This document shows, one piece after another, positions 12,150 through 32,144 of a stretch of 64,000 nt of DNA. The notes below the pieces were generated by a model, which saw only the letters and a program-made list of their open reading frames with translations, made no database searches and was not told the origin of the DNA. This stretch comes from Candidatus Heimdallarchaeota archaeon (GTDB lineage Archaea > Asgardarchaeota > Heimdallarchaeia > Heimdallarchaeales > Heimdallarchaeaceae). Each line of letters begins with the position of its first letter. Position 1 is the stretch's first letter. The stretch lies in the NCBI GenBank assembly GCA_019057815.1, contig JAHLWR010000010.1, forward strand, positions 32,001-96,000, read 5' to 3'. The position numbers and the translations under genes are program-made.

Positions 12150-12532
12150 GAAATTAATTTTTTTAGAGCATTATTCTCTTCTTGCTTCAGATTACTATTA
12201 CGATGTCTTCTTGTTGTATATTGCTAAATAAGAAATAAGTACTATGATTTTCATCAGTAACAATACAACATTCTAATTTTTCTATCTCTATTTTTACTTC
12301 CTGTACCACTTGCAGAAACTGTCAATTCTTATATAAGAATAATAAGATGAAACAACAAGAAAGAAAGAAGATTAAGAAATAATCCTTGCAGAACAATGTT
12401 CTTATACTGTTTTATAGTTTGTTGTTTTTTTTAATACTATTTCTAATAATCCATTTATATTAAAAGAAGTTTAAGACATGTTTAAGAAGGAGGGAGAAAA
12501 AGTACTTTGAATCACATTTGCTTTGAAGAAAA

Positions 12533-13060
12533 ATGCCTATAATTATTGATAATGCTTGTTGTATTGGTTGTGGAATCTGCGTTGACATTTGTCCAGAATC
12601 CGTTATTGATATTGATCATAGTAATGAACAAGGTCTACATGAATTGGATGAAATAGCGATTGTTGTAAGAAAAGAAGATTGTACAAACTGTGGTTTGTGT
12701 ATTACTGAATGTCCAGCTGAATGTATTGAACTCGATAATGAACCATCCGTCCATCAAATGGAGACAGAAGCAGAAAAAGAAGACCTAAAAAAAGATAGAT
12801 TAGGAATTTTAGAGAAGATAATCAAGAGGTATGTGGAAATATCAATTAGTGATATGTGCCAATTACTAAAATTCGAAGAGGAGATTGATTTAAAGAAATG
12901 GTTAATTGATCTCCCTGATCATGTTGGTTTTGAGATACGAATTGATACTGTTTACATATCTAGTAAACTACAAGATGATTCTTCTGAAGCTCAAAAGGCA
13001 ATTGATGAACTACTAAAGAGTTTTTCAGACATTGAATATAAAAGTAACAAAAAACTATAA
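12533..13060 (+). CDS. 2x[4Fe-4S] ferredoxin fused to a C-terminal helical/wHTH-like domain
   Basis: CIGCGICVDICP and CTNCGLCITECP, followed by a ~95-aa non-ferredoxin tail. Confidence 0.85.
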   Translation: MPIIIDNACCIGCGICVDICPESVIDIDHSNEQGLHELDEIAIVVRKEDCTNCGLCITECPAECIELDNEPSVHQMETEAEKEDLKKDRLGILEKIIKRYVEISISDMCQLLKFEEEIDLKKWLIDLPDHVGFEIRIDTVYISSKLQDDSSEAQKAIDELLKSFSDIEYKSNKKL

Positions 13061-15647: not shown

Positions 15648-18590
15648 ATGAACAAAATAAAAATACTTGCATTGTCAGATGTTCGTATTCATGATTGGAA
15701 TCAAGTTGTTAATTATCTAAAACGCAATTATGAAAATGGGAATGTCATTGATTTATTGTTGTATGGAGGAGATGATGTTAATAAATTACTTAATTTAACC
15801 ATAGATGATTTCAGGAATTTGAACTATCATTATAAAATCTTTCAAAGTAAGAACTTTGATTTGACATATGCTGATCTAAAAGATGTAATTATGAGTGATT
15901 TATATTTAAGTAAAAATATAGATAAACTTGGAGAAATTCAGAATAAAAAATTAACCAATAGATTTATCAAAAAAACATCCAAAAAATCAAGAATTCACTG
16001 GAAATTAAAAACGCATCTTAAAGAAGATATCAACGAACTCCAAGAAAATCTCAATTATCCACATTTGAAATATTTTAGAGAAGACAAATGTTTAATTTCT
16101 ATTTTCCCTAAAAAAATAATTCCTATCAAGATTGAAAATTCTAAAGATATTTACAATCATTGTCAAAAAGAACATAAGAAATCACTTAAATTTCTTGATA
16201 ATTTTATTTCAGATCTTAATCAATTAAGAAATGCTAATTCAATCATGCTCTACAAAACATATAGAAGATTACTTAAAGCTACTAAAAACACCAAAACATA
16301 TCATAACAATAAAAAGAAAATACTAAGTCTTCTGGAAAAGATTTTAGAAAAATTTAGTTTAAACATATATGATATTAGTCAAGAATCCATTATTTTTAAT
16401 AATAGAAAAATAAGTATCCGTTTAAGTTCTTATCTTTTTTTTGAAACTGAAGGATTATTAAGAAAAGAACACTGTTCGATAGCATTTTTATATAAAACAT
16501 TGAATTTTTTTAGAAAATTCTGTATGATATATGAACATCTGATTAATCAAGATTCAGATCTAAAAGAAATTTTTTTTGAAGATCCCTTTTATAATTGGAG
16601 AGTTCTAATACTACAAATAGAACAAAAATCCATATTGAAAGAAATTAAGAAATATATAAAATATGGTGTTGCTTTAGTTTGTGGAAATGATGATTTTGAG
16701 GATTCCATAGAGAGGATAAAATTCTATGATTGTTTTAATCTACAAGAAAAACCACTGTTCTTTAGAAATCTAACAATAATTGGTTTAGAAGGATCTGAAG
16801 ATAGAGAACTAGATAAATATAGCAAAAATAGAGAGCTATTTAGAGAACCTAGATCTAATGTTGAGAAAATTAGAGTAGGAATTGGACCAACAATCTTTCC
16901 GATTAGAGAACAAGAAAAAAAACTACATAATCATATATCACTAATTGAAGAAAAAGCACCTGAGAATAAGATCCTAATAGTTTCTCATTCTCCACCTTTA
17001 GGTATTTTAGATTTAGCTTATAGATTTGGATGTAATCATATAGGTAGTATAGTATTAAGAGAATTTATAGATAAATTTCGGAAAAAAAATTGTGGAATTA
17101 TTTGCGGTCATGTTCATTCTTGGGGAGGTAATAAGAGCATTTACAAAGGAGTTCCTATTTACAACATCTCATGTCATGATATGACGAGTAAAGGGGATTA
17201 TCCCCCATTTAATGCTTTATTTCTAGAAGTTGATAAAAATGGAGATATCATATATGAAGATATCTTTAATATTCTTATTGCAGAAAAAGAGAAATATAGA
17301 AATCAACCAACTTCCGTTCTCTCCAATATCGGTAAAAAGAGACAAATAATGTTGGAAAAAATTGGAATCAACTCAATTGGGGAATATGCAAAAATAGACT
17401 ATGATGAGCTCTTCCTAAATTTGTATAACCTTTATAAAGAAATAGGTGACAAATTTTATTGGGGGTTTTATCATAAGACATATTGGGGCGCAAAATTTCT
17501 ACTTAAAGAAATTGATAAACCAAAAAAGCTAGATACCATAGAATATGAAAGAAAGAACGCCATTGTTTTGGATTTAGAAACTGAATTAGTACAAGATAGA
17601 ATGGCACAAGACTTCAGTAATACTCGTATTTGGATGATTGGAATATATCATGTTGAAAAATGTAAACTCAAACAATTCTATTTAGGCAATTACGATAATA
17701 TCAGAGACATGCTGGTTGATTTTCTTTCTTGGATTTTTGAGAATGAGATAGAAACGATATTTGTTTACAGTTCAAATAAATTCGATGAGAAAATCTTAAA
17801 CACCAATTTAGAAAGATTTGTATATAAATCTGGAAGGGGAATATTACCCCTAGAGTTTTCAAAATGGAGTATTAACCATTTATTCGTTCCTAAAGACTTC
17901 CCATCTTCTCCTAAATATGTTAATTTATTCGGAGAATGGATAAAAAAGCTTTGTTTACCCTCCTACAGACTTGCAGAAATGTCCAAGCTAATTTTTAATA
18001 AAGAAGATACTATAACTGGTTTTAATTGTGGTCAAATAGGATCTCACTTAATTATATCTAGAAAAGAAGATTATGGAATATTGGAATGCAAATACTGCAA
18101 AGATTTGGTACAAAAAGTTAAGAAAAAAAATGAAGATGATGTTGTTTTTACTTCTAAATTGTTAGACTACTTTGAGAAATTAGAAGTAAGTTCCAATGAG
18201 AAAAAAGAAATTAAAAAATCTGTTAGAAAGAAATCTGGAGATGGTTTTAAATGTATTTCTTATAAAAACGGAATGAAAAATTGTTATGATAATAGAAAAC
18301 TAAATCAGAAAGAATATCTCTGTTACAAAATAGTTGAAAAAATGTTAAAGTTTGGAGAGAGTCATAGAGATGAGAGCTCAAGTTTTCAAGAAGAATACCA
18401 AATTCAAATGAAAACCACATTCAGTGATATATCATTAAAAACTTGCCAAATAACTTATTTTTATAATCAAGGAAGAGTAAGAATAAAGAGGAATATTGAA
18501 AGACATAAACATCAAAGAGTTGGTATAGACATAATAAAACTAACAAAAAACCAACTTCTTGAGCTTGAAAAACTGACTGATAAAATTTAA
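15648..18590 (+). CDS. Calcineurin-like metallophosphoesterase (with large insertion) + HhH + RNase H-like (RNase_H_2/YprB, DEDD) fusion
   Basis: LSDVR, GGDD, GNDD, SHSPP, CGHVH; LSNIGKKRQIMLEKIGINSI (HhH); VLDLETE..WMIGI..KFD..NEDDV. Confidence 0.7.
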   Translation: MNKIKILALSDVRIHDWNQVVNYLKRNYENGNVIDLLLYGGDDVNKLLNLTIDDFRNLNYHYKIFQSKNFDLTYADLKDVIMSDLYLSKNIDKLGEIQNKKLTNRFIKKTSKKSRIHWKLKTHLKEDINELQENLNYPHLKYFREDKCLISIFPKKIIPIKIENSKDIYNHCQKEHKKSLKFLDNFISDLNQLRNANSIMLYKTYRRLLKATKNTKTYHNNKKKILSLLEKILEKFSLNIYDISQESIIFNNRKISIRLSSYLFFETEGLLRKEHCSIAFLYKTLNFFRKFCMIYEHLINQDSDLKEIFFEDPFYNWRVLILQIEQKSILKEIKKYIKYGVALVCGNDDFEDSIERIKFYDCFNLQEKPLFFRNLTIIGLEGSEDRELDKYSKNRELFREPRSNVEKIRVGIGPTIFPIREQEKKLHNHISLIEEKAPENKILIVSHSPPLGILDLAYRFGCNHIGSIVLREFIDKFRKKNCGIICGHVHSWGGNKSIYKGVPIYNISCHDMTSKGDYPPFNALFLEVDKNGDIIYEDIFNILIAEKEKYRNQPTSVLSNIGKKRQIMLEKIGINSIGEYAKIDYDELFLNLYNLYKEIGDKFYWGFYHKTYWGAKFLLKEIDKPKKLDTIEYERKNAIVLDLETELVQDRMAQDFSNTRIWMIGIYHVEKCKLKQFYLGNYDNIRDMLVDFLSWIFENEIETIFVYSSNKFDEKILNTNLERFVYKSGRGILPLEFSKWSINHLFVPKDFPSSPKYVNLFGEWIKKLCLPSYRLAEMSKLIFNKEDTITGFNCGQIGSHLIISRKEDYGILECKYCKDLVQKVKKKNEDDVVFTSKLLDYFEKLEVSSNEKKEIKKSVRKKSGDGFKCISYKNGMKNCYDNRKLNQKEYLCYKIVEKMLKFGESHRDESSSFQEEYQIQMKTTFSDISLKTCQITYFYNQGRVRIKRNIERHKHQRVGIDIIKLTKNQLLELEKLTDKI

Positions 18591-19404: not shown

Positions 19405-19470
19405 AAAAAAAAATGTATATTTCTCTCTTATAGATACTTTGATAGTTATTTAAGTTTAGTGTGGTACAGA

Positions 19471-20997
19471 TTACTTTGAGACAAACCTAGCATTCTGTTT
19501 TATCTTTGGATATTTCTGAATATTATCTAGATCTTTAAGAGATTTTAGAACAACATAGTATTCACTTTTTAGTTTAAATATCTCATAGGGAAACTTAAAG
19601 GGTTTTAATTTAACACCTTGTTTCTTCTCTTTTTTGGTTATAAAAAGTTCCATATGGTCAATCTTTTCAGCTTCTTCAGGTAATTTTGGAGGGACGATTG
19701 TCCTTGTTACAGTAATTTTTTTAGGTATTTTGTCCTCAAATTTCTTTGTGGTAACTGGTTTTTCTTTTAAGAGTTTATTCATTTCACTTAAATCCTTTGT
19801 CTCTCTTTTACCTTGATCATCGAAAAATTCTGCTATTATTTCCTTTTTCAGAATATCTCTACCTTTTGGAATTTGAATAAAACCAACATCACAATCTTGC
19901 ACAGATTGTTTTTCCTTCCATTCCAAGGGAGCAGATTCAATCCAATTTTTCGCAATTTCTTCTAATTCACTTAATGAATTGTTAGAAAGCTTTATTCCGA
20001 CTTCAAATCCTTCATCCAATCCTCTCTTCTCAAAATTCGCTGTCATTACTATACCAAGTTCATTTTCTGAATCCATGATAAATTTAGCGTGAAGATATTT
20101 GTAAGCTAAAATCCTTACACCGTTTTTTGCAGCTGCTTCAACAAACGGATAATTTTTTTCCTTTGGTCTAGTTAGAATTGTAAGTTTTTTCTCTTTACAA
20201 AAATTAATCAAATCTTGTGCAATTTCATGTTTAATGTCAAAACTGTAACTAGATATAATTAGTTCGGAAGAAGCATTTTTGATTAATTTAGAAATTTCTT
20301 CTTTAAGAGTTCTAGAGGAATAAGAAGTATTGATAATGGCATCTTTTGCACTAATATCTTTGAGTTTAATAGTTTTAACATCATCCCAATGCCCTATTCT
20401 TGTAAGTTCTTGTTTACTTTCTAACCAGAAGCCTTTACGAAAAAGGTTGAAAAGGCTTGATGTTTCATCTTTATCTAATATTATTCCTATCTCTTGATTT
20501 CTAGTTAAAGCTTCTTTGGTAAAGTTTGCAGTTGATAAAAATCCTTTCTTATTTTCTGTAGTTGGATCAATGAGCAAAAATTTAGCATGTAGATGTTCAC
20601 TTGTTCTTGCTAGTACTTTACCTGTAAGTTTACTCAACATCATTTTGTGTTCTTCTAAGGTTTTTTTATCGAAATCAGATTGTTCATCTTTGTATTCTTT
20701 CTCAAGTTGAGCATCTGTAGAAAATAAAAGATAACACCTTACACCTCTTTCACTTGCATTAATAATTGATTTAATAATTCTAGTATCACTTAAAATAAAT
20801 GAGCACAACATTACAGTATGTTTTGCGCTTTTGATTGCCCCAATTAACAACTTATGGAAATCATCAGATTCATTTCCAATTTGAATGACCGTAGAGAAGG
20901 TTGTTGAATCTATTTTTCTATGTCTTCTTTCTTTCCAATGCGCTGGAATTGTATACTCGTATTGATAACTATTGTTTTGTTCTTTTTCTTTAATCAA
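19471..20997 (-). CDS. Phospholipase D-superfamily protein with two HKD modules (putative nuclease)
   Basis: HLHAKFLLID..STANFT..NQEIG and YLHAKFIMD..MTANFE..FEVG; no TM helices, unlike cardiolipin synthase. Confidence 0.85.
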   Translation of the reverse strand: MIKEKEQNNSYQYEYTIPAHWKERRHRKIDSTTFSTVIQIGNESDDFHKLLIGAIKSAKHTVMLCSFILSDTRIIKSIINASERGVRCYLLFSTDAQLEKEYKDEQSDFDKKTLEEHKMMLSKLTGKVLARTSEHLHAKFLLIDPTTENKKGFLSTANFTKEALTRNQEIGIILDKDETSSLFNLFRKGFWLESKQELTRIGHWDDVKTIKLKDISAKDAIINTSYSSRTLKEEISKLIKNASSELIISSYSFDIKHEIAQDLINFCKEKKLTILTRPKEKNYPFVEAAAKNGVRILAYKYLHAKFIMDSENELGIVMTANFEKRGLDEGFEVGIKLSNNSLSELEEIAKNWIESAPLEWKEKQSVQDCDVGFIQIPKGRDILKKEIIAEFFDDQGKRETKDLSEMNKLLKEKPVTTKKFEDKIPKKITVTRTIVPPKLPEEAEKIDHMELFITKKEKKQGVKLKPFKFPYEIFKLKSEYYVVLKSLKDLDNIQKYPKIKQNARFVSK

Positions 20998-22096
20998 AAG
21001 AAATAACCTCCTCTAATAACATGTCTTCTGGAGCCTTGAGAAACCAATATTTTTGAGAACCAAATTCAAGTTCGTCAAGAAGTTCATCCCTTTTTGGTAT
21101 ATCTAGTTTAAAATCTTTTAAATCAGAGAATTCATCAAGCATTTCTTTCCATTGAATTTCATACTGATTACCTACAAGATATAGGAAGCATTTACGTTCT
21201 AAAAATATAGTTTTAGCCCATAATATCGCACTTATCTGACAATCTGGAAAGATTGAAACATCATAAAATTTTACTTGTGAAAAATTGCCTAAATCTCCAA
21301 GTTTAATGCTCTTTTTATCAAAGTTTTTTAGAAAACTATTTACCTCAGATAATTGCAAATTTGAAGGATTCTGAGGAATTCTCCATCTCTTTAGGTCTGC
21401 ATTGGGTGAGATTATTTTAAGTAACTGATCAACCAAAAGTTTGTGTTCATATCCTTCAGGGAATGGAAAAGAAAATTCCTTGTTTTGGATAACTACTTTA
21501 GATTTCCATTTTCCTTCAGAATAAGTAAGAAGGATATCTAAATTTACCACCGAATTTCTATTAACTATTCCTATCTTATTTATTTCATGTATATCCACCA
21601 ATCTTGGCCGTTTTTCAAGTGTTCTAAGTTTAGTACCTTCTGTTTTTAAAACATGATTAGGTAAGACAATTTTTTTCTCTGTTCTCCCGTCTAGAGATTC
21701 TTTTAATTCTCTATCCAAATTTGGGTCTAATCTTTTAAAATCAATAATCACTTGTGGCAATAAAACATCTTTGACTGTTCGAATTTCAAAAGCACCTTCA
21801 TCTGGTGTTAAAATAGTCTCTTCTTCTAGTGCCTCAAATCCTCTGGGAGACAAAGAATAATCACTATCAATCAAATCTAATATCTTTAGTTCTTCTAGTA
21901 TATTTATAACAAATTTCTCTGAAAAACTTTGAAACAAGGTCTTATTCATATATTTAACCGAATTTTCTTTCTTTTCTTCAGCTTCTTGAACTGCTTTAAG
22001 AAGTGGTAAAAGTTCTGGTCTTCTTTCACTTATAAAAACACTCATCCTTACTGAATAAGAGACACTAGATATCTGTCTTTTTAGTACTATTCTCAT
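20990..22096 (-). CDS. Hypothetical protein (possible N-terminal winged helix) in the viperin operon
   Basis: 368-aa ORF translationally coupled between helicase and PLD; 'ILEELKILDLIDSDYSLSPRGFEAL' resembles a wHTH wing. Confidence 0.7.
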   Translation of the reverse strand: MRIVLKRQISSVSYSVRMSVFISERRPELLPLLKAVQEAEEKKENSVKYMNKTLFQSFSEKFVINILEELKILDLIDSDYSLSPRGFEALEEETILTPDEGAFEIRTVKDVLLPQVIIDFKRLDPNLDRELKESLDGRTEKKIVLPNHVLKTEGTKLRTLEKRPRLVDIHEINKIGIVNRNSVVNLDILLTYSEGKWKSKVVIQNKEFSFPFPEGYEHKLLVDQLLKIISPNADLKRWRIPQNPSNLQLSEVNSFLKNFDKKSIKLGDLGNFSQVKFYDVSIFPDCQISAILWAKTIFLERKCFLYLVGNQYEIQWKEMLDEFSDLKDFKLDIPKRDELLDELEFGSQKYWFLKAPEDMLLEEVISFD

Positions 22097-22102
22097 TTTA
22101 TC

Positions 22103-24877
22103 TCACCATATTTTTTTAGATTCAACTCTTTCAGCAAGTTGCTGCAAAATTTCTGACCTTTTTTGAATCTCCTTGAACAATTTTTTATTTCCAACGATAA
22201 CTAGTTGATACTTTGCTCTTGTTAATGCTACATTTAATCTATTAGGAGTATCTAAGAATCCCAATCCTCTACTTCTAACTAGTGATAAATATACAATATC
22301 AGCTTCATGACCTTGAAAGCGATCAACGGCACATAGTTCAATCACTACATTTTTTTCAGGAAGATAAAAAGTTCTAGTTCTTCTACTTTTTAAATAAGAT
22401 TGAAGTTTTTTTCTGATTAAATTTTCTTGACTAAGATAAAAGGGTAATATTGCAATTTTCCAAGGTTTATTATCCTTCCTTCTGTTATCCGAAGTCCACA
22501 TTAAAAGATCTTTGATTTCTTTTATTATTGCATTTGCTTCCTTGGAATTACTATTTTTATGTGATTGATTGATTTCTCTGTTTGAAAGCCTTATGTCAAT
22601 CCAAACTATCCTATTTTTGTAATTAGGATATTCAAATTGCCTTTCTTCTGAGATATATTGGGGGTCTTGTAATGCTTCATTATCATAGAAAAATTCTCGT
22701 GGAAAACTAGATATACTAGGATGCATTCGATGTTGAAACCTTAAAATCTTATGACGGTGTTTCATTACATTTTTAACGGGTAGCCCATCAGTTATTATCA
22801 ATCCAATATCCTTTTCTTTTTGAGATTGACTCCTCTCAAAACCCTTCTGTAGAAGTTCAATAATGGAAGGAAATGCTAATCTTTTTACTTGATCCAAATC
22901 AGATAGAAATTTTGTCCTTCTAATGTCACTCCAATGATTTGGAATTAATTTTTCTATTTGCTTCTTGTATCTGTTATCCACAAGACTCCTTAACTCATAA
23001 TCACGAACTAATCGCCAACCTATAGCCTCACTCCATGTTTGATCATTTGATATCTTGAGATTAATCTCATAATTTTCTTTCAGAACCATTCTTATTTTTC
23101 TTTTCCATCTTCTAAGATCATCATACAGAGAAGATAACTCTATTGGTTGTAAAGAACTTGCATCGTGTTCTACATAAGAATTTATACTCAGAGGAAGAAA
23201 TTCTTCGTTTTTTTCGAAATCTGCCTTTGTTCCAAATATAATAGAAGCACCGAGTAAATTATAAAATTCCATTTTATTCAAATCTGATAGTACATAGTAG
23301 GGGATAGTACTTGGAATAAGTTTTTCTAGAAGTTCATCATTATGCAATGGTTTAGCTAACAGTTTCAAACACTTGATTGTATGATTTTTGTTAATTTTCT
23401 GGATTTCTTCAAAATTATTGACTAATGCAATTATATTTCCTTCTTCAGGAGCAAAGGTTATAATATTACTGACAACACCGTCTTCATCAACATAAGGTGG
23501 AAGCTGTTTTATATCTCCTACAATTATATGACGTTCTGCAATTAAAGCAGGAACAAGAAATTCTTGAAAAGTTGTTTTACTAGCTTCATCAAGAATTAAT
23601 ATATCATAAGGTCTCATTGATGCTGTTTTACCTTCAAACCTTAATTTCTCAATTTCTGGATGTTTAAGAATACCAATGGTTGTTCCACAAACTAAATTTG
23701 CAGCTCTTACAAACACACGTTTCATATAATCGGGAGTTGTTTTCTCATCAGATTCTAAAATTCCTAACATCATATCTTGTGATTCAGTTTTGTTCTTAAT
23801 TGATCTCAAATTTTTTCTCAATTTTTCCTTCTCAGTTTCCCAAAAAGAATCAAGCTGATATTCAGTTGCCAAATCTGATATTCTGTCTGTTTTACCAATT
23901 CTAATAGGAAGAACATACTGTTTAACTTTTTCATAAACATCTGAATCTTCATCCATAAGTTTCTCTATCACATTGTCTACTGCTACATGAGTTGAAGCTA
24001 CAAGTAGAATTTTTAAGTCTCTTTTTAACGCTTGGTAAATTAGCTCACATATAGTTGTTGTTTTTCCTGAACCAGGAGGACCCTCTAAAATTGCTAGGTC
24101 AGGAGTACCAAGAGCAATTTTAACAAATTCTCTTTGATCTACATTGCCTGACCTAAGATCGTCTGTCAAAAATAACCACTCATTATTTCGAATTGGATGA
24201 GGAATAACATCATCAAATTTTACAGTTCTTATATTTTCGAATAGTCTAATCAGATTTCTGTTGTGTTTAAGAGGACGATTTAGGAGTTGCTCTAGAGATT
24301 GGTTGATCACATCAAGTTGATACAAGTTTGGTCTTAAATATAATCTCATTCTGTTTCTTTTATTATTGATATCCTCTTTTTTTAGTACTAGTATGTCATA
24401 TGGAGGGTATGTTGCTAAGACTTTGATACTTCTTGGATTTTCTAGATGTTTAGTGGGAAAAACTTCTTTTGAATTCAAAAACTGTTCTTTTTTATGCTGA
24501 TAGGTTTCTAAACCCTCGCTATTCTGGGGTTCTATACATTTATATAAGACCCCTCTTCCATTAGTAGATAGCTTAGTTACTCGATCTAGTTGTTTTTTCA
24601 ATCTTTTTTTTCGTTTGATTTCCTTTTTATCATAACCTCCTAAATAGAGATCGTTTTCAGTTGTATAGTCCTCAAGCAGATAAAACTCCTCAGTCATTAA
24701 ATCTTCTACTTCAAACCTCTCTACAGTAATATATATTCGCTTAACTCTTGACGTATACATTATTCTATCAATAAAACGGAAATATGGTTTAATTCCATGG
24801 AGTGTTGTCCACATAATTGATTTTACATCTCTTTCAGATAACCTCTCATCTAAGTTCTCATAATAAAGAAAAGACAT
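22103..24877 (-). CDS. SF1B helicase, UPF1/DNA2/NAM7-like (AAA_11+AAA_12)
   Basis: GPPGSGKTT, ASTHVAVDN, ILDEAS, VGDIKQLPP, QHRMHP.I, VDRFQGHEAD, RLNVALTRAK. Confidence 0.93.
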   Translation of the reverse strand: MSFLYYENLDERLSERDVKSIMWTTLHGIKPYFRFIDRIMYTSRVKRIYITVERFEVEDLMTEEFYLLEDYTTENDLYLGGYDKKEIKRKKRLKKQLDRVTKLSTNGRGVLYKCIEPQNSEGLETYQHKKEQFLNSKEVFPTKHLENPRSIKVLATYPPYDILVLKKEDINNKRNRMRLYLRPNLYQLDVINQSLEQLLNRPLKHNRNLIRLFENIRTVKFDDVIPHPIRNNEWLFLTDDLRSGNVDQREFVKIALGTPDLAILEGPPGSGKTTTICELIYQALKRDLKILLVASTHVAVDNVIEKLMDEDSDVYEKVKQYVLPIRIGKTDRISDLATEYQLDSFWETEKEKLRKNLRSIKNKTESQDMMLGILESDEKTTPDYMKRVFVRAANLVCGTTIGILKHPEIEKLRFEGKTASMRPYDILILDEASKTTFQEFLVPALIAERHIIVGDIKQLPPYVDEDGVVSNIITFAPEEGNIIALVNNFEEIQKINKNHTIKCLKLLAKPLHNDELLEKLIPSTIPYYVLSDLNKMEFYNLLGASIIFGTKADFEKNEEFLPLSINSYVEHDASSLQPIELSSLYDDLRRWKRKIRMVLKENYEINLKISNDQTWSEAIGWRLVRDYELRSLVDNRYKKQIEKLIPNHWSDIRRTKFLSDLDQVKRLAFPSIIELLQKGFERSQSQKEKDIGLIITDGLPVKNVMKHRHKILRFQHRMHPSISSFPREFFYDNEALQDPQYISEERQFEYPNYKNRIVWIDIRLSNREINQSHKNSNSKEANAIIKEIKDLLMWTSDNRRKDNKPWKIAILPFYLSQENLIRKKLQSYLKSRRTRTFYLPEKNVVIELCAVDRFQGHEADIVYLSLVRSRGLGFLDTPNRLNVALTRAKYQLVIVGNKKLFKEIQKRSEILQQLAERVESKKIW

Positions 24878-25758
24878 TAGCTAACACTCCTTGGCTTGAG
24901 ATTCCAGTTATAAATTCCACCACGTTTCTTGAATTTTTCATAGTGCCAACCTACTTGTTGAATTGCTGAATAAGGGTCTACTTCAAGAATAGATAGACTA
25001 TATTTCAGATAACCCTCAGAGTTCTGAAAAAACCTACCCATAGCGTCAAGCATAAGATAAGAACCTCTCATAAGTTCATTATTCTCTGCAATGGGATTCA
25101 ATGATTCATGCTTCTGTACAAAATTGTCAAATTGCTCTGATGATATCTGAAGAGACTGAAAATATTCATCATTCTGACCTTTTACAGATAATACTTGGAA
25201 TACTTTCCATCTTTGAGGATTGAGTTCAATAATCAAATCAGTCATCTCTTCTTCCCAGTTCATACTAGTAACAACAGTATTGATTTTAAGTTTGATACCA
25301 GCTGTATGAATTACTTTTACTATTTCTTTAATCTTTTGGATATGATTTCCTGAACCTCTTCCAAGTTTATATTGTGTTTCTTCTTTTGAACTATCTAAAC
25401 TTAAAGCAATCCAATCTATGTAAGATTTGTACTCTTCGATAAAATTACCCGTTAGTAATGAACCACTTGTTATCAGCATTGTTGTCATATCTAGCTTTTT
25501 AGCTTCTATTATTAAATCTCCTAAATGAGGACAGAGTAACGGTTCTCCACCTGTAAGAGATAATTTCTCTGTTCCTGCAGAATTGAGGATTGAAGGTATT
25601 TTTAGTGCTTCTTCTTTTGATAATAAAGATTTTATCTCATTAAAGGTTCCAAAACAGAATTTGCATTTATTCGTACATCTAGGCCACAAATGCCAGTTTA
25701 CACTTATCAAAGGAAAAGAGGAATTATTAAGACAAGAATAATTCTCTTTCATTTTCAT
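24877..25758 (-). CDS. rsad2: Viperin (RSAD2-like antiviral radical SAM ddhNTP synthase)
   Basis: SVNWHLWPRCTNKCKFCF, GGEP, KINTVV, PQRWKVFQ, ENNELMRGSYLMLD..GRF and C-terminal FKKRGGIYNW, all viperin-specific motifs (cf. animal SVNYHFTRQCNYKCGFCF..FLKRGGKYIW). Confidence 0.93.
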   Translation of the reverse strand: MKMKENYSCLNNSSFPLISVNWHLWPRCTNKCKFCFGTFNEIKSLLSKEEALKIPSILNSAGTEKLSLTGGEPLLCPHLGDLIIEAKKLDMTTMLITSGSLLTGNFIEEYKSYIDWIALSLDSSKEETQYKLGRGSGNHIQKIKEIVKVIHTAGIKLKINTVVTSMNWEEEMTDLIIELNPQRWKVFQVLSVKGQNDEYFQSLQISSEQFDNFVQKHESLNPIAENNELMRGSYLMLDAMGRFFQNSEGYLKYSLSILEVDPYSAIQQVGWHYEKFKKRGGIYNWNLKPRSVS

Positions 25759-26228
25759 TAATGAGTAGCTCCTAGGATTATATCAGATTTTGATAGATTC
25801 ACGAAATTTGACTGTTTGAAAAAGAAGAAATCAGTCGCTTCAGTTGCTAGATTTCCATTAGCTATTTTATAAGGAAACACTCTATTGAAGTCTAAATCAT
25901 AAAACATTGTTTGAAATTCTCTAAATCTGTCGTTCGAAAGAATAGCAGTATCTAATTCTCTAGCGTAAGCTAGTATAGCTATGTCATCATATATTCTTGG
26001 GTCAAGTAAAAGAACATCATCATCCTCTTGAAATCTTTTCTTGAATTTCTTGAATCCTGGTAAAATAAAGAGTGGCGATACTCCATTATTCTTTGCCCAA
26101 ATTCGGACATAATCAATATTATGAAGATTGCTTTCTCCTTTTGGATGTTTTATAACATTAAGTCCATCAACTATTAAGATATTTTTTTGGTTTTCTCTTT
26201 TTGTTTTTCGTTTTGTTTGGAGTTGCAT
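25758..26228 (-). CDS. NYN/PIN ribonuclease of the Zc3h12a (Regnase-1/N4BP1)-like type
   Basis: ILIVDGLNV..YDDIAIL.YA....AILSNDRFREF..RVFPYKI; all four catalytic Asp present. ATG at 26228 is the likely start; TAATG overlap with viperin. Confidence 0.8.
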   Translation of the reverse strand: MQLQTKRKTKRENQKNILIVDGLNVIKHPKGESNLHNIDYVRIWAKNNGVSPLFILPGFKKFKKRFQEDDDVLLLDPRIYDDIAILAYARELDTAILSNDRFREFQTMFYDLDFNRVFPYKIANGNLATEATDFFFFKQSNFVNLSKSDIILGATH

Positions 26229-26335
26229 TAAATATACAAAGAAGAACAAGATATTAAAAGTTTTTCTTTTATATTTAAAATTAATATTGTATTATACAAA
26301 ACAATCTTTTTAAATATGTCTGCTCTCACAACATT
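26228..26335. promoter_or_regulatory. Divergent promoter region with candidate operator palindromes
   Basis: TTGTAT-T-ATACAA perfect inverted repeat at 26287-26299. Imperfect IR TTAAATATACAAAGAAGAAC / GTTTTTCTTTTATATTTAA at 26228-26278. TATA-like TTTTAAATA upstream of the CARF gene. Confidence 0.45.
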
Positions 26336-26980
26336 ATGCGCAACTTGCATATTGCGACTGTTGGTAAATCACCTGGTCCAATCATTGAAGGAATTAGAGT
26401 ATATCCTATTGATGATTTGTATATGTTGTATAATGAGGGGTCCCATAAGGAAGCTTTAGAAATAAAAAAATCAGCAATCAATTGGAAGCTTAAGTGCAAC
26501 ATGATTGAGGTTGATCAATTTGATATCGAAAATATTTTTGTTACAATCCTGTTGATTCAAAAACGAAACCTTGGAAGTAAAATTTACATAAACGTAACAG
26601 GAGGTACAAAAATAATGTCAAACGCAGCTTTTCTTGCAGGATATCTAATAGGTGCTACTATTTATTATATTAGAGAAGCTCAAGAAAATGAATCTCTTCA
26701 AGATTGTGTTATTGAGCTTCCTGTACCTAAAATACAATTAGATGACATCGATGAAAATCAACAAAAAATTTTGTCTCATTTGCTAAAAAATAATGGAAAG
26801 ATAACGACAGGAACTACAGAACTAAGTAAGAACCTTCATTTAAAACCTCAATTAATAAGTTATCATCTTAAAAGATTGGAAATTGCTAATCTAATCATAA
26901 ACGAAAAAAAAGGAAGAATAAATATTATAAGTTTAACAAGCGCAGGTAGGTTTGCAGCAAAATACCATGGTATTTTATAA
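26336..26980 (+). CDS. CARF + winged-HTH transcriptional regulator (Csa3/DUF6293-like)
   Basis: HIATVG.SP..I..GI, INVTGGTKIM (CARF); C-terminal ELSKNL..KPQLISYHLKRLE..LI..LTSAGR (ArsR/MarR wHTH). Confidence 0.85.
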   Translation: MRNLHIATVGKSPGPIIEGIRVYPIDDLYMLYNEGSHKEALEIKKSAINWKLKCNMIEVDQFDIENIFVTILLIQKRNLGSKIYINVTGGTKIMSNAAFLAGYLIGATIYYIREAQENESLQDCVIELPVPKIQLDDIDENQQKILSHLLKNNGKITTGTTELSKNLHLKPQLISYHLKRLEIANLIINEKKGRINIISLTSAGRFAAKYHGIL

Positions 26981-26999
26981 ATTTGAGAGATGGAAAATA

Positions 27000-27950
27000 T
27001 TGAATATTCTCATCACAGGAGGTTTGGGTTTTATTGGTTCTCATCTTGTTAAATTCCTTTTAGAAAAAACAGAGAACAATTTAATCATTTTAGATAACTT
27101 ATCAACTGGTAAGAAATCAAATATTTACAATCTGGTTAATAAAGAGAATATCTCCAGAGTAGAAATTATTAAGGAAACAGTTGAAAATGTAGACCAAATA
27201 AAGCTAAAAAATATTTCAAAAATATTCCATTTGGCAAGTCATGCTAGTCCAACAGATTTTAGAAAACACTCTCTAGAAATTATGATGACTAACTCTATTG
27301 GAACAAAGAAAGTTTTAGATATAGCGCTTAAGAACAATGCTACATTCATCTTAGCTTCAACATCTGAAATATACGGTAATCCATTAATTCATCCACAAAA
27401 CGAAGATTATTATGGTAACGTTAATACACTAGGAATAAGAGCATGTTATGATGAATCTAAGCGTTTTTCGGAAACACTTTCGATGATTTATAAAAGAGAT
27501 AAAAATTTGGATGTTAGAATTCTTAGAATTTTCAACACATATGGAACTAATATGAGACTTAATGACGGGAGAGTTATACCAACTTTCTTGAAACAAGCAT
27601 TAACAGGTAACCCCATAACTGTCAGAGGGGATGGAAAACAATCAAGATCGTTATGTCATGTTTCTGACCTTATAAATGGGATTTATTTGATTTCGGTTAT
27701 TAAAAACATTAAATACAATGTGTACAACATTGGGAATCCAGAAGAAATAGAAATAATCGAGTTAGCTGAAATGATAAAAAAAATGACTTGTTCATGTTCG
27801 AAAATCAAATATATAGAGGAATTAGACGATGAACCTCGAAGAAGAAGACCGGATATTAATAGAATAAAGGACGAAACAGGTTGGTCACCCACTATTTCGT
27901 TAAGGGAGGGACTTAAGAAGATTATACCACATTACAAAGAGATGTTATAA
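27000..27950 (+). CDS. UDP-glucuronate decarboxylase-like SDR (UXS family)
   Basis: TGGLGFIGSHL, HLASHASP, ASTSEIYG.P..HPQ.E.YYGNVN..G.RACYDESKR, RIFNTYG..M..NDGRV. TTG start at 27000 is likely. Confidence 0.88.
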   Translation: MNILITGGLGFIGSHLVKFLLEKTENNLIILDNLSTGKKSNIYNLVNKENISRVEIIKETVENVDQIKLKNISKIFHLASHASPTDFRKHSLEIMMTNSIGTKKVLDIALKNNATFILASTSEIYGNPLIHPQNEDYYGNVNTLGIRACYDESKRFSETLSMIYKRDKNLDVRILRIFNTYGTNMRLNDGRVIPTFLKQALTGNPITVRGDGKQSRSLCHVSDLINGIYLISVIKNIKYNVYNIGNPEEIEIIELAEMIKKMTCSCSKIKYIEELDDEPRRRRPDINRIKDETGWSPTISLREGLKKIIPHYKEML

Positions 27951-27966
27951 AAGAAAAAAGAATAAG

Positions 27967-28965
27967 GTGGCAGCAATTTCAGTTAAAAACAATAAATTTG
28001 CTAATATTGACAAACAAAATTCTTTAGTTATTGATGTGACCTATAAATGTAATTCTAGCTGTTATTACTGTCAATGGGGAGAATCAAGGAAATCGTCAAA
28101 GGAAATAAATTATGAGAAATTACTTGTTCCTGAAAAAACTTTGTCATCTATAGGTATTGAGCGAGTTGTTCTTTCAGGAGGAGAACCACTTCTTCATAAT
28201 AGAATAATAGACATAATAGATTATTACAACCAGAAAAAAGTTGATTCCATTATCTTATTAACAAATGGAATATTATTAGATCTGTCAAAACTTCAACTAT
28301 TGTTAAAGCATGGAGTGACTGGAATGACTTTCTCAATTGATTCACTTGATTTTGAAGTCATGAAAAAATCCAGAAACGTTACAAAAGAAGTACACCAAAA
28401 AATTATCAATAATATTAATTCGATTGTGAAATTTCGAGAAACCAAAAGTTTTGAATTGGGAATAAATTGCGTTATCTCCTCTTCCAATTTGCGTTGGGAT
28501 TATCTTCATCCTCTTGTTCAGTTTTGTAATCAAAACAACATTGATTGGCTGAAATTTCAGCCAATTTTTGACGATGGTTATCTATCGTTAAATGCACCTC
28601 AACTTAAACTGAGTAAGAATCATTCGGAAGACGTCATTGAAATAGGAAAAAAGATACTAAATTTTGCAACAATAAACACCAATAGTATAGAATTCTGGAA
28701 ATCACTTTCATCGGTTTTGCATGGTAAAAAACTTCTAGGTAAGTCATGTGGGCTAGTTAAAAGACAAACTATTCTAATTAGAGGGGATTTGAAATTTTGC
28801 TATTGGTTAGATAATCCAATTTACTCTTCATGTTCTATGGAATTAACTAAAGAGAAAATTCAAGAAATAAGAGATAAATTTAAAGATTCAAAAGAAAGGT
28901 GTAAAACAGGAATGTATTGTTTCTGTCTACAATCTTTATCACATAAATGGGATATTTCAAAATGA
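27967..28965 (+). CDS. Radical SAM protein with C-terminal Cys cluster
   Basis: CNSSCYYC, SGGEPLL, TNG, SIDS; C-terminal C..FC..C...CFC. Confidence 0.88.
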   Translation: MAAISVKNNKFANIDKQNSLVIDVTYKCNSSCYYCQWGESRKSSKEINYEKLLVPEKTLSSIGIERVVLSGGEPLLHNRIIDIIDYYNQKKVDSIILLTNGILLDLSKLQLLLKHGVTGMTFSIDSLDFEVMKKSRNVTKEVHQKIINNINSIVKFRETKSFELGINCVISSSNLRWDYLHPLVQFCNQNNIDWLKFQPIFDDGYLSLNAPQLKLSKNHSEDVIEIGKKILNFATINTNSIEFWKSLSSVLHGKKLLGKSCGLVKRQTILIRGDLKFCYWLDNPIYSSCSMELTKEKIQEIRDKFKDSKERCKTGMYCFCLQSLSHKWDISK

Positions 28966-30083
28966 ATGCTTCAAGTATTGATATCATAATTCCCTCATTT
29001 AGAGCGGATTCAGAATATCTAATTCCAATTTTCAATTTAGATAAACCTGAAAATGTCGAAATTAGATATTTTCTCATAATTGATAATCCAGAAATCGAAA
29101 TTTGTGAAACATTAAATGAATATTTAGAACACAAGAATGTTTGTGTTATAAAAAATGAAACAAATTTGGGAGCATCAGCTTCTAGAAACAAGGGTATTGA
29201 GGAAGGGACTGGGGATTGGTTACTATTTTTAGATGATGACATTACTGTAAATCGAGATTTATTAATTAAGTACATTAATGCGATTACAGAATCAGAAAGT
29301 AAAGTGCCTGGGTTTGTTGGAGTTACAGATTTTCTGGATCCTATTAATAGTTTCACAAAAGGTGTTAATGCAAGCGATATTCTTACATTCTTTCCTTTAG
29401 CTGAATATGAGGGAGAGATGTCTTGGGGTGTTACTGCTAATCTCCTGCTTAAAAGAGAAGCTGTCGGAAATTTTAGATTATAAGATGAAATATTCCCGAA
29501 ATTTGGAGGTGGAGAAGATATTGATTTGTGTTTAAATATTGTTCAACAAACAGGTATCAAATTCAAAACTATTCCTGAAGCTAAGGTTACTCACCCATGG
29601 TGGAATGATGGAAAGAGATCATATACACGATTCAGAAGATGGGCTTATGGTGACAGCATATTACCTAAACTTTTTCCGCAATATAAATATTATAATTTTC
29701 CCAATGTAATTGAATCTTTAATCTTGTTTGCCGTTTTAGGGATTGTCTTATCTGTCCTAAAACTTTCACCTATCCCTCTTATCTTATGTTTAGGTTCTGT
29801 AATTCTAGGTGAGATACTAATTGAATGGATGAAGATAATCAAAAACAAAAAGATATATTCACTAATCACTGCTTTAGAATCAGTATTAATTCGAACATCA
29901 AATGATCTAGGAAGAGCATTAGGGAACATCAAAAGGTTAAACTTCGCTGGATTTATGCAGAGATTTGATTATTTTTGTGATGGTAAGCACATTAAGAATG
30001 AAAGGATTTGGGCAGGATTGAAAACATTGTCTTATTCCATCTTTGCATCCATATTTGTTTATTCTTTTTGGGTATTATGTTAA
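28962..30083 (+). pseudogene. GT2 glycosyltransferase with C-terminal TM helices, interrupted by one in-frame TAA (29481-29483)
   Basis: ORFs 28947-29483 and 29526-30083 share a frame. Read-through gives ..NFRL*DEIFPKFGGGEDIDLC.., joining IIIP/GASASRN.G/FLDDD to the catalytic ED motif. Confidence 0.8.
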
Positions 30084-30097
30084 AGGAAAGATATAGT

Positions 30098-31456
30098 ATG
30101 GTAAACGGAATCATTATGTCCAACAATTCAGAGAACATATCAATTGATAAAATACTGCAAATGTACTCAGAAGCTAAAAAAACTAATGATTATCAATTCT
30201 GGATATACACAGGTTTATTAGCTGAGATTTTGAAACAATATCATTATTCTATTGATTGTTATACAAATGCATTAAAAATGCAAATTTCTCCATTTTTAAG
30301 AACTTCTTTAGCAAGAGCACAAGCAGGAGTAGGTCAGTGGGAAGGTTCGCTTAAGACTTTATTGTCACTTAGCGTTAGTGAGTTTTCTTCTGTAATAAGC
30401 AACTATAATCTTTGCTTAACTATAGGTTTCCTTCCATATAATCTACAAAGAAAAGTAACTCAACATTTCAAGGAACAAGGTTTGATTGTACTTGATGATA
30501 TTGAAAATCTTGAAAATGCTTTAGCTGTAAGAGAGGAAAAGTACATAAATCAAAAATACAGGGATAGTTCACAACTTCAGATCCAAACTTATATAAAGTT
30601 CTCCAAACTTTTGATTGGTGATTTTGATCCTAGAAGAATGACTGAATTTCTACAGATGGGTTACACAGAAAATATTGCTCAGAAGATTCTAAAAACCAAT
30701 CCCGAAGCAGTAGAAACTTCAATTCTACGGAAAGCTAAATTAAAAGAACATGATAGAGAATATCAGAAACTTGATAGATTGGATGGTTGGTTAACTCCTC
30801 TGGAAGGAAGGGTCTTAGCTGTTTTAGCAGAAAATGTTGAATATAATTCAGTAATTGTGGAAATTGGTAGTTGGAAAGGGAAATCATCTTGTTTTTTAGG
30901 AACTGGTAGTAGTATAGGGAAAAAACCCTTAGTATTCTGCATAGATCCTCATAATTGGACGGATAATGTTGAAGTAGCAAATACTTTCAGCTCTTGGACG
31001 AGTACCATTGAATATTTGAGTCTAGAAAATTTAGTAATAAATATTCGTAAAGAATCTGAACATGTAGCAAGAGATTTTAGTGAAAATGTAGGATTGCTCT
31101 TTGTAGATGGGGATCATTCTAGAGAATCTCTAATCATAGATATTGAAAACTGGCTTCCCAAACTAGAAAAAGGTGCTTATATTGCTTTTCACGATGCATA
31201 TTTTCCTGATGTTTTCGAAGTACTTCAAGAAAGAATATTCAGAAGTGAAAAATTCAGAATTGTTGATTTTGTTGAAGGATTATTAATTGTTCAATTTTCA
31301 CCCAATAGAAATTCAACAAGAACCTACTCTGAACTTGTCATCTGGCTATATTTTATTTACAAATCACAAATATTCAAAAAATTAGAAGATAAAAGAGTTT
31401 CAGAACTAGTAAATATTGCATTATCTTATAGAGAGAATCTACAAGCAGGAGTTTAG
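30098..31456 (+). CDS. TPR-like N-terminus + class I SAM methyltransferase (Methyltransf_24)
   Basis: DGWL...EG, VEIGSWKGKS, CIDP, LFVDGDHS, L.KG.YIAFHD. Start uncertain (30098 or 30116). Confidence 0.8.
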   Translation: MVNGIIMSNNSENISIDKILQMYSEAKKTNDYQFWIYTGLLAEILKQYHYSIDCYTNALKMQISPFLRTSLARAQAGVGQWEGSLKTLLSLSVSEFSSVISNYNLCLTIGFLPYNLQRKVTQHFKEQGLIVLDDIENLENALAVREEKYINQKYRDSSQLQIQTYIKFSKLLIGDFDPRRMTEFLQMGYTENIAQKILKTNPEAVETSILRKAKLKEHDREYQKLDRLDGWLTPLEGRVLAVLAENVEYNSVIVEIGSWKGKSSCFLGTGSSIGKKPLVFCIDPHNWTDNVEVANTFSSWTSTIEYLSLENLVINIRKESEHVARDFSENVGLLFVDGDHSRESLIIDIENWLPKLEKGAYIAFHDAYFPDVFEVLQERIFRSEKFRIVDFVEGLLIVQFSPNRNSTRTYSELVIWLYFIYKSQIFKKLEDKRVSELVNIALSYRENLQAGV

Positions 31457-31457
31457 A

Positions 31458-32144
31458 GTGAAAAACAAAGCAAGAATTAACAAAATAATAGAGAAAATAG
31501 AGAATAAGGGAGGATCTAAGTTAATTGTCATCCTTCGTCACTCAGATAGAGAAGAAATTTCAGATGCCAAAAAATCTTTTGACGTTCCTCTAACTGATCA
31601 AGGTAAGGCAATTGCTCGAATACTTGGAAATGAATTATCAAAGATTAATTCATATAGACTATATCATAGTGATGTACCTAGATGTAGAAATACGGCAAAA
31701 AGTATTGCAGAAGGAATTGAAGCAAGTCAAGGATCAGTCACCATCCTAGGAGAAAGAGATTATCTTGGTGGATTTTTCATTAAAGATTTTAATAGTGTTT
31801 TAGGATTAGCTAATCAAGTCACTGGACTTGAATTCATGCTTAAATGGTTTGCTGGAGAAATAGAGGAATCAGAAATCATACCCTTCAACAAAGCAACAAA
31901 TTATCTACTAAGTTCTTTATTAAATGAATCAAATGAGAATGAAAGAAGCGAAGTTGACATATACATAACTCATGATTGGAACATGATGCTACTCCTATAC
32001 AAGATTTTCAATTTTCAAGAGAGCAAGTTAAGATGGCCTTATTATCTCGAACCCATTTTCATTGATATCAATAATTCAGAAACACATCTCTTTTATGAAG
32101 GTGAAAAACGATTTTTAAATATAGATTTTCCAAGGAGGTATTAA
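31458..32144 (+). CDS. Histidine phosphatase family protein
   Basis: ILRHSDR, LTDQG, S.VPRC.NTA, ITHD. GTG start at 31458 is likely. Confidence 0.82.
   Translation: MKNKARINKIIEKIENKGGSKLIVILRHSDREEISDAKKSFDVPLTDQGKAIARILGNELSKINSYRLYHSDVPRCRNTAKSIAEGIEASQGSVTILGERDYLGGFFIKDFNSVLGLANQVTGLEFMLKWFAGEIEESEIIPFNKATNYLLSSLLNESNENERSEVDIYITHDWNMMLLLYKIFNFQESKLRWPYYLEPIFIDINNSETHLFYEGEKRFLNIDFPRRY

Follow-up and report, generated by a model that had tools for sequence, protein, structure and literature searches.

What does it mean that a viperin gene stands in an unbroken row with four other genes in an Asgard archaeon? The locus lies in a 64,000-nucleotide (nt) stretch of Candidatus Heimdallarchaeota archaeon (assembly GCA_019057815.1, contig JAHLWR010000010.1, positions 32,001 to 96,000 of the forward strand), hereafter the window. 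Its five genes, at 19471-26228 of the window, encode an NYN-type RNase, a prokaryotic viperin (pVip), a UPF1-like helicase, a 368-amino-acid (aa) third protein that we refer to as the adaptor, and a PLD-family nuclease; helicase, adaptor and PLD nuclease are termed the trio. Considering the gene content, the coupling of the genes, their intact motifs, the recurrence of the modules alone and together, the conservation of operator and TATA box, and the Cas10 encoded in the genome, we conclude that the locus is probably a composite, co-transcribed and signal-induced defence operon, in which the NYN-viperin pair and a Mokosh-like trio are placed under CARF control and co-expressed for layered defence.

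Organization of the operon

Five co-oriented open reading frames (ORFs) follow one another on the minus strand, at 25758-26249, 24877-25758, 22103-24877, 20990-22096 and 19471-20997; within the first of these the NYN gene starts with the ATG at 26228. Reading the sequence letter by letter, we found TAATG at the NYN/pVip and the pVip/helicase junctions, where the stop and start codons overlap by 1 nt each. The helicase and adaptor genes are separated by a 6-nt gap (TGA-GATAAA-ATG), and the TTG start of the PLD gene overlaps the TAA stop of the adaptor gene by 8 nt. This TTG start is credible, since an invariant tryptophan (Trp21) precedes any methionine in PLD. The five-gene layout of the initial annotation, with its overlapping junctions and single gap, was thus confirmed.

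The operon is very likely a single transcription unit: stop and start codons overlap, the 6-nt gap is the only internal intergenic space, and a TATA-like box that is conserved stands 22 nt ahead of the first ATG. The same proposal had been made earlier, and it is further borne out by the recurrence of the arrangement in 11 Heimdall-class genomes. A run of nine T residues (T9; 19405-19413, minus strand), some 58 nt past the PLD stop, is a candidate archaeal terminator. The base composition is even over the operon, with a GC fraction of 0.28-0.33, and a scan of this composition across the operon did not indicate a recent foreign origin. The closest full-length loci (four-row alignment search, three loci) were those of Candidatus Heimdallarchaeum aukensis PM71 (CP084166.1) and of other Heimdallarchaeota metagenome-assembled genomes, and the source genome belongs to the same family as the PM71 loci.

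The NYN RNase, viperin, helicase and PLD nuclease

The first protein (25758..26228, minus strand; 156 aa) is an NYN RNase of the Regnase/Zc3h12a type, which matches Pfam RNase_Zc3h12a (PF11977) with 29.1 bits (cut-off 23) and an expectation value of 9.2e-7. The motifs VDGLNV, YDD and LSNDR are present, and five homologues retain the acidic DxxN, DD and SND motifs. A CCCH zinc finger is absent after the NYN domain, the protein being only 156-163 aa long without a second Pfam match, and a PDB sequence search yielded no meaningful relatives. The protein encoded next (24877..25758, minus strand; 293 aa) is, by its equivalog-level score, a bona fide pVip: it reached 288 bits with the NCBIfam equivalog viperin_w_prok (cut-off 180) and 1e-83 with PADLOC pVip. 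Its radical S-adenosylmethionine (SAM) motif CxxxCxxC reads CTNKCKFC (residues 28-35), and it resembles solved viperins (2e-55) as well as mouse RSAD2 (1e-45).

The helicase (22103..24877, minus strand; 924 aa) is a UPF1-like enzyme of superfamily 1 (SF1) that matches PADLOC MkoA (1.7e-89) and Pfam AAA_11 and AAA_12. Both its Walker A motif (GPPGSGKT, residues 266-273) and the DEAS motif (residues 430-433) are intact. The best solved relatives in a PDB search were UPF1 (3e-29) and IGHMBP2 (4e-25), next to SEN1 and DNA2. The helicase also matched the NCBIfam model NF040671, "PLuB system helicase-like protein," with 143 bits, far under its cut-off, and a literature search for "PLuB system" retrieved no paper of that name. 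The PLD-family nuclease (19471..20997, minus strand; 508 aa) matches Pfam PLDc_2 in two stretches (9.8e-28), PADLOC DrmC (4.7e-22) and PADLOC MkoB (1.6e-9). Its two active sites, H137/K139/D144/N158 and H303/K305/N321, make it a dual-HKD enzyme, and both sets are invariant in 21 homologues; a PDB sequence search with this protein gave no meaningful relatives. The earlier domain calls (NYN RNase, viperin, UPF1-like helicase, protein of no recognized type and dual-HKD PLD) hold by Pfam, PADLOC, NCBIfam and PDB matches. The accompanying expectation that defence finders would call viperin alone was not borne out, since PADLOC also reports the MkoA and MkoB matches.

The latter two matches relate the trio to the Mokosh systems, of which type I consists of the helicase MkoA and the PLD nuclease MkoB (bioRxiv 10.1101/2022.05.11.491447). 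As in type I, a COG1112/UPF1-like SF1 helicase and a PLD nuclease are encoded by separate genes of one operon, and the Walker A/B and HKD motifs, residues required for Mokosh defence, are intact. However, there are also clear differences. The window helicase has 924 aa, whereas the MkoA profiles span 1112-1607 positions, and no serine-threonine kinase domain was detected by Pfam either in the entire protein or in its first 245 residues scanned alone. Type I has two genes, whereas here a third gene always lies between helicase and PLD, and no MkoA or MkoB profile matches the adaptor or 59 relatives. The window PLD carries two HKD motifs in one chain, and the DrmC profiles score above MkoB. Finally, the module is tied to CARF regulators and, in the window, to pVip and NYN. 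Mokosh type II (MkoC), a fusion of helicase and PLD, has the same two enzymatic activities, but three separate proteins are encoded here, and MkoC matches the helicase only weakly (6e-24).

An adaptor predicted to bind the nuclease

The adaptor (20990..22096, minus strand; 368 aa) is composed of a winged helix (residues 25-93), a beta-rich remainder and a C-terminal helix with the pattern YW(F/Y)LQAPxD. It belongs to no family in Pfam, PADLOC or NCBIfam, and a Pfam scan of the adaptor family gave a weak match to wHTH-PRTase_assc in 8 of 60 members. A word-indexed protein search returned the adaptor itself only, so that an exhaustive search was needed to find relatives; this profile-free search retrieved approximately 100 representative clusters from bacteria and archaea, nearly all of 340-420 aa. 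C-terminal extensions found in three homologues of about 520 aa showed no similarity to PLD or to any other protein in the locus set. We also considered that the adaptor might be a split-off N-terminal part of MkoA or MkoB, but this idea is unsupported, as none of the 60 family members matches any PADLOC Mokosh profile.

The AlphaFold2 model of the adaptor has a predicted local distance difference test (pLDDT) score of 95.7, with 60 homologues in the alignment. In this model, residues 25-93 superimpose on winged helices of MarR/DtxR-type regulators (Z score of 9.8, root mean square deviation of 1.9 over 67 residues) and on that of Csa3 (Z score of 7.6). A broad structure search with the full model matched the winged helix and nothing for the remainder. 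Residues 95-345 folded alone (pLDDT of 93.8) gave a best structural match with a Z score of 4.2, under the usual noise level, and Foldseek found nothing in the PDB at E <= 0.001. The modelled remainder is thus without a match to a known fold, which in itself does not prove a new fold. A shape search showed that bacterial clusters annotated as "hypothetical protein" share the fold of the adaptor, with template modelling (TM) scores of 0.73-0.81.

The initial annotation had proposed complex prediction for helicase, third protein and PLD. For the adaptor-PLD pair binding is predicted, with an interaction prediction score from aligned errors (ipSAE) of 0.80 in all three runs, as compared to 0.48 for the best of three controls. 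In a benchmark, 58 of 80 solved complexes attained this mark, as did 2 of 110 mismatched pairs, counts that are rough because own alignments were used. The models agree in at least 95% of the contacts between runs, and the pLDDT of the partner is at least 81. Furthermore, the predicted interface coincides with the most conserved noncatalytic residues, namely, Y306, W351, A355 and D358 of the adaptor and R87, Y89, F186 and W191 of PLD. The stretches predicted to be in contact include residues 345-366 of the adaptor and residues 82-89, 126-129 and 184-191 of PLD. Taken together, the models support binding of the adaptor to PLD through its C-terminal helix. Such a complex would set the trio apart from Mokosh II, which is a monomer when purified; in the same nuclease-NTPase survey, Mokosh type I could not be purified (bioRxiv 10.1101/2025.07.10.664194).

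A shared control region and a possible source of the signal

Divergent from the operon lies the gene of a Csa3-like regulator (26336..26980, plus strand; 214 aa) with an N-terminal CARF domain and a C-terminal winged helix, termed CARF-wHTH here, which matches PADLOC CARF3--CARF over its full length (4.6e-50) as well as Pfam HFX_2341_N, CARF_Card1 and HTH_24. Orthologues are divergent from pVip in seven other genomes (G004, G035, G030, G036, G032, G082 and G081), giving eight loci with the window. The 107-bp region between CARF-wHTH and the NYN ATG (26229..26335) contains a 6-1-6 palindrome, TTGTATaATACAA, at 26287-26299, a second palindrome about 20 bp further on (26255-26271), which is present in the orthologous intergenic regions too, and the TATA-like TTTAATAT at 26251-26258 of the minus strand, which is invariant in the alignment. 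The 22-nt spacing of the latter from the NYN ATG is as expected for an archaeal TATA box with a leaderless transcript. The palindrome occurs at the same offset in seven orthologous loci, and its arms covary (TTGTAT/ATACAA, GTTTAT/ATAAAC, GTTTAC/GTAAAC and TTTTAT/ATAAAA). Together, these sequence features make a good case for a single promoter controlled by a dimeric DNA-binding protein, and we infer that this protein is CARF-wHTH.

Like Csa3 and the bacterial RtcR, a CARF-AAA+-HTH protein, CARF-wHTH fuses a CARF sensor to a DNA-binding domain and is encoded back to back with its putative target genes, next to a putative palindromic operator; unlike in these cases, the genes under its putative control are neither cas nor rtc genes. 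Bacterial trios end with an RtcR-like CARF-AAA+-HTH regulator (PADLOC RtcR_PspF1, 1.1e-145), as found in the bacterial-type contig L018 (7713-9155) and on Vibrio rumoiensis plasmid 2 (L069; 5895-7340), where RefSeq lists a "sigma 54-interacting transcriptional regulator." The company of the trio with CARF-type transcription factors thus spans bacteria and archaea. In the window, the CARF-wHTH gene also overlaps the start of a co-directional sugar/glycosylation row (26952-32144, plus strand) with an epimerase, a radical SAM protein of weak viperin similarity (1.7e-22), a glycosyltransferase, a methyltransferase and a histidine phosphatase, and CARF-wHTH may also drive this row.

The source genome encodes a type III CRISPR-Cas system on contig C20 (L068; 719-8845), with an 810-aa Cas10 carrying HD and GGDD motifs, Csm2, several Csm3/Cas7-like proteins, a Cas5-like protein and Cas1; a short repeat array with a 74-nt period lies at 12501-12686 of the same contig. 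Since the Cas10 keeps its GGDD motif, a candidate source of cyclic oligoadenylate exists in the genome, unlinked to the operon.

Recurrence of the modules alone and together

To place the operon in context, its genes were followed through 400 Asgard genomes, in which several of the trio and pVip loci end at contig edges and related genomes are not independent samples. Helicase, adaptor and PLD were found in that order in all 25 Asgard loci read, and a third gene of 350-420 aa lies between helicase and PLD at every locus read. The trio is also present in the bacterial-type metagenome contigs L018, L045 and L046 and on V. rumoiensis plasmid 2, where the genes are annotated as helicase, hypothetical protein, PLD-like protein and sigma-54-interacting regulator. 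The distribution is patchy: 26 of the 400 Asgard genomes contain the adaptor/trio, as do 2 of the 30 other genomes of the window's own family. Helicase, adaptor and PLD form an autonomous three-gene module, and most of its loci have no viperin within the sequence available.

Variants of the module were also observed. In G141 (L035, 6015-12855), two helicase/PLD modules stand tail to tail; one is a full trio, and the other encodes an 818-aa, very divergent helicase with a long tree branch, a 329-aa protein and a PLD. In G134 (L039) and G078 (L040) the trio takes a variant form, helicase (1276 aa) and PLD (762 aa) both being enlarged; conserved extra genes come after it, including one for an IetA-like AAA+ ATPase (5.5e-25).

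NYN and pVip form a recurring pair in their own right, as G175 and G229 have an NYN gene immediately before pVip but no trio; in G185 a fragment of NYN takes this position. NYN heads the operon only in the source genome and in G022. At other loci a small CARF protein stands beside a protein of about 365 aa, which in L019 matches the PIN half of CARF-PIN profiles (2.3e-24) and in L025 gives a weak match to Pfam PIN_4; the RNase role thus seems to be filled differently there, by a PIN-like protein. In one Heimdall family a PyrH-type uridine monophosphate kinase (Pfam AA_kinase) is encoded between pVip and the helicase (L013:1803-2549, L014:7644-8366, L015:11582-12277, L016:1419-2135 and L050:3930-4592); it reaches 126 bits with NCBIfam pyrH_arch, below the cut-off of 158, and its superfamily differs from that of the published CMPK2-type nucleoside monophosphate (NMP) kinases. 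Published viperins stand alone or with a nucleotide kinase, and these related loci likewise have a kinase next to pVip; however, the published partners are CMPK2-type NMP kinases, whereas the kinase here is of the PyrH/amino-acid-kinase type and the window operon has NYN and no kinase.

Of the 27 genomes with pVip, 16 are Heimdall class. In 11 of these (G000, G004, G022, G028, G030, G032, G035, G036, G074, G081 and G082) the trio follows pVip immediately and in the same orientation, while pVip is clearly unlinked in G005, G078 and G085, and a contig end cuts the locus in G024 and G034. Outside the Heimdall class, pVip was found at most 3 kb from the trio in G142 only. The adaptors of the aligned linked loci are just 20-46% identical, from which it follows that the gene order has persisted through prolonged divergence. 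Eight of the linked helicases group together in a single clade of the helicase tree, with an SH-like approximate likelihood ratio test (SH-aLRT) support of 99, whereas the linked helicase of G081 falls into another clade (support of 100) among unlinked helicases; an approximately unbiased (AU) test rejected a single clade of linked helicases (p of 7.7e-61). The comparison of G081 (L037) with its congener G082 (L025) is informative in this respect. Their methyltransferase, PIN-like, CARF, CARF-wHTH and pVip proteins are 53-73% identical (CARF-wHTH, 73%; PIN-like, 68%; pVip, 64%), as opposed to 35% for the helicase, 24% for the adaptor and 31% for PLD. Because the left arm is similar and the trio deeply different, the whole trio was exchanged as a cassette, with the slot behind pVip being kept. 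The pVip tree tracks the host families, with unlinked pVips nesting beside linked ones, which fits an old pVip-trio linkage with later losses. L019 has a third layout, in which pVip and NYN are divergent from a row of CARF-wHTH, CARF, PIN, helicase, adaptor and PLD. Judging from these comparisons, the viperin-trio linkage is not a matter of chance.

Alternative explanations

The initial annotation had considered viperin a subunit of one machine, in which viral transcripts or replication intermediates that are terminated by 3'-deoxy-3',4'-didehydro (ddh) nucleotides or stalled could be unwound by the helicase and destroyed by NYN and PLD. In its tightest form, such transcripts would be the specific substrates or trigger that the helicase recognizes. 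The initial annotation had also named trios that occur independently of viperin across genomes as evidence against this machine, and this is what was observed: many Asgard genomes, bacterial-type contigs and a Vibrio plasmid carry the trio, mostly with no viperin. The viperin-centred machine is weakened by this finding and is not supported as stated. Viperin is missing from most trio loci of non-Heimdall Asgard genomes and from every bacterial trio locus that was read, and at least 13 Asgard genomes, the close relatives G005 and G085 among them, have viperin without the trio. Furthermore, Asgard viperins protect Escherichia coli alone (PMC11291487), in agreement with the earlier statement that prokaryotic and Asgard viperins can protect as single genes. 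There are nevertheless observations that speak for an integrated machine. The pVip and helicase genes are translationally coupled by TAATG, their adjacency is kept in the 11 Heimdall-class genomes and was re-formed or retained after the cassette swap, and pVip and NYN accompany the trio even in the different, divergent arrangement of L019. UPF1-family helicases sense stalled ribonucleoproteins in eukaryotes. As the joining of pVip and trio has been repeated, this explanation gains some weight, and we consider it improbable rather than negligible.

A bolder proposal, to which we assign a still somewhat lower probability, is that the trio represents a distinct third Mokosh type, in which a winged-helix protein of new fold would tether the dual-HKD nuclease to the helicase. 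In Heimdallarchaeia it would be wired to viperin and a Regnase-type RNase, with the helicase sensing ddh-made RNA ends or stalled complexes and a cyclic-nucleotide alarm acting as the switch. Such a system would be an archaeal forerunner of the link between RNA surveillance and immunity seen in UPF1-Regnase-1 and MOV10L1-Zucchini. The likeness to these eukaryotic pairs (UPF1-Regnase-1 and MOV10L1-PLD6/Zucchini) is at the domain level only, in that a UPF1-like helicase, NYN, PLD and viperin are encoded together; in contrast to them, the window NYN has no CCCH finger and the window PLD is dual-HKD, whereas PLD6 has a single HKD. A comparison of Mokosh with the PIWI-interacting RNA (piRNA) pathway has been published (bioRxiv 10.1101/2022.12.12.520048).

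Alternatively, independent defence systems with no common regulation or purpose might stand side by side in a defence island by chance. Both modules do occur on their own elsewhere, and the window contains further defence-like genes, including those of two DNA methyltransferases and a SAVED protein. However, the overlapping stop/start codons leave no space for internal promoters, the gene order is kept although the identity of the adaptors drops to 21-27%, the slot behind pVip is kept through the cassette swap, and 12 of 400 genomes have pVip (present in 27) at most 3 kb from the trio (present in 26). We therefore regard a chance neighbourhood as very unlikely. A housekeeping function of the trio in RNA surveillance or repair, for which co-expression with viperin would be incidental, is equally hard to sustain. 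It might be read from the kinship of the helicase with UPF1, IGHMBP2, SEN1 and DNA2, but the trio is patchy, cassette-swapped and plasmid-borne in Vibrio, keeps constant company with CARF sensors, CARF-PIN, viperin and methyltransferases, and gives a strong match to the MkoA defence profile.

Other genes of the window

A 515-aa protein (622-2169, plus strand) has a C-terminal SAVED-like region (PADLOC CBASS effector, 1.1e-11; SAVED_TIR, 1.2e-7) and brings the cyclic-nucleotide sensors of the window to two; no cyclase adjoins it. Two DNA methyltransferases, of the N6_N4_Mtase (32719-33591, plus strand) and D12 class N6-adenine (33595-34515, minus strand) types, have homologues near the viperin-trio locus in G022, G082 and G081, and no restriction enzyme was identified beside the window pair. 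A 980-aa ORF (15648-18590, plus strand) is convergent with the operon; it has no Pfam family and a weak match to PADLOC PDC-S10 (4.5e-8).

Discussion

The explanation that we favour is that of a composite defence operon with two arms. The nucleotide-analogue arm would consist of the NYN RNase and viperin, and the second arm would comprise the UPF1-like helicase, the winged-helix adaptor and the dual-HKD PLD; both would be driven by one promoter, with an operator region shared with the divergent CARF-wHTH. Infection would be sensed elsewhere, most plausibly by the type III CRISPR-Cas system of the genome. Cyclic oligoadenylate would bind the CARF domain, which would change the occupancy of the palindrome beside the TATA box by the regulator and induce the operon. 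Viperin would then make ddh-nucleotide chain terminators. The adaptor is predicted to hold PLD by the conserved helix at its C-terminus, and its winged helix probably links this nuclease to the helicase and to nucleic acid. The complex of helicase, adaptor and PLD, together with the NYN RNase, would degrade viral nucleic acid, be it RNA or DNA. Each arm can act alone elsewhere, and the two may act in synergy when combined.

A number of observations weigh against this explanation. CARF-wHTH reaches 52 bits with the NCBIfam Csa3 model TIGR01884, which is below its cut-off of 60.2, and it may not regulate the defence operon specifically, since it also heads the sugar/glycosylation row. The Cas10 locus and the operon are on different contigs and no cyclase lies beside the operon; a search of the source genome for SMODS/CD-NTase found none. 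In addition, the trees were built by a quick method, and the linked helicase group was named after the synteny had already been seen.

In the literature, viperin and the Mokosh-like genes have been reported as separate entities. A related Promethearchaeum locus was annotated as "Mokosh type II" beside a separate pVip, the two being listed as separate systems (bioRxiv 10.64898/2026.02.13.705702), and viperin and Mokosh are also listed separately in the study of Asgard viperins mentioned above, in which the MkoA phylogeny points to a bacterial origin (PMC11291487). A preprint on viperin evolution examined gene neighbourhoods for NMP kinases only, and the word "helicase" occurs 0 times in it (bioRxiv 10.1101/2023.09.13.557418). 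An archaeal defence survey contains no text on CARF or PLD (PMC12988326). The initial annotation did not recognize the architecture as a named system; it missed that the helicase and PLD pair is Mokosh-like and did not connect the divergent CARF regulator with the operon. None of the literature searched describes the three-gene module, its adaptor or a viperin joined to it.

What is new is therefore the assembly, i.e. a Mokosh-like module with a third subunit that is joined to viperin and NYN under putative CARF control, the single parts being of known kinds. Viperin has been treated as a single-gene defence with a kinase partner at most, whereas in the Heimdall class, the archaea closest to eukaryotes, most readable viperin genes are in an operon with a Mokosh-like machine under a putative CARF regulator. 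This suggests a layered, signal-induced immunity rather than a constitutive single enzyme. The adaptor is a widespread third subunit that is missing from current defence finders, and its predicted nuclease interface is testable; the three-protein version of archaea or Vibrio may offer a more tractable entry to the Mokosh mechanism. With a viperin, a UPF1-like helicase, a Zucchini-like PLD and a Regnase-like RNase encoded together, the operon provides a system in which to ask about the prokaryotic roots of eukaryotic antiviral and RNA-surveillance partnerships.

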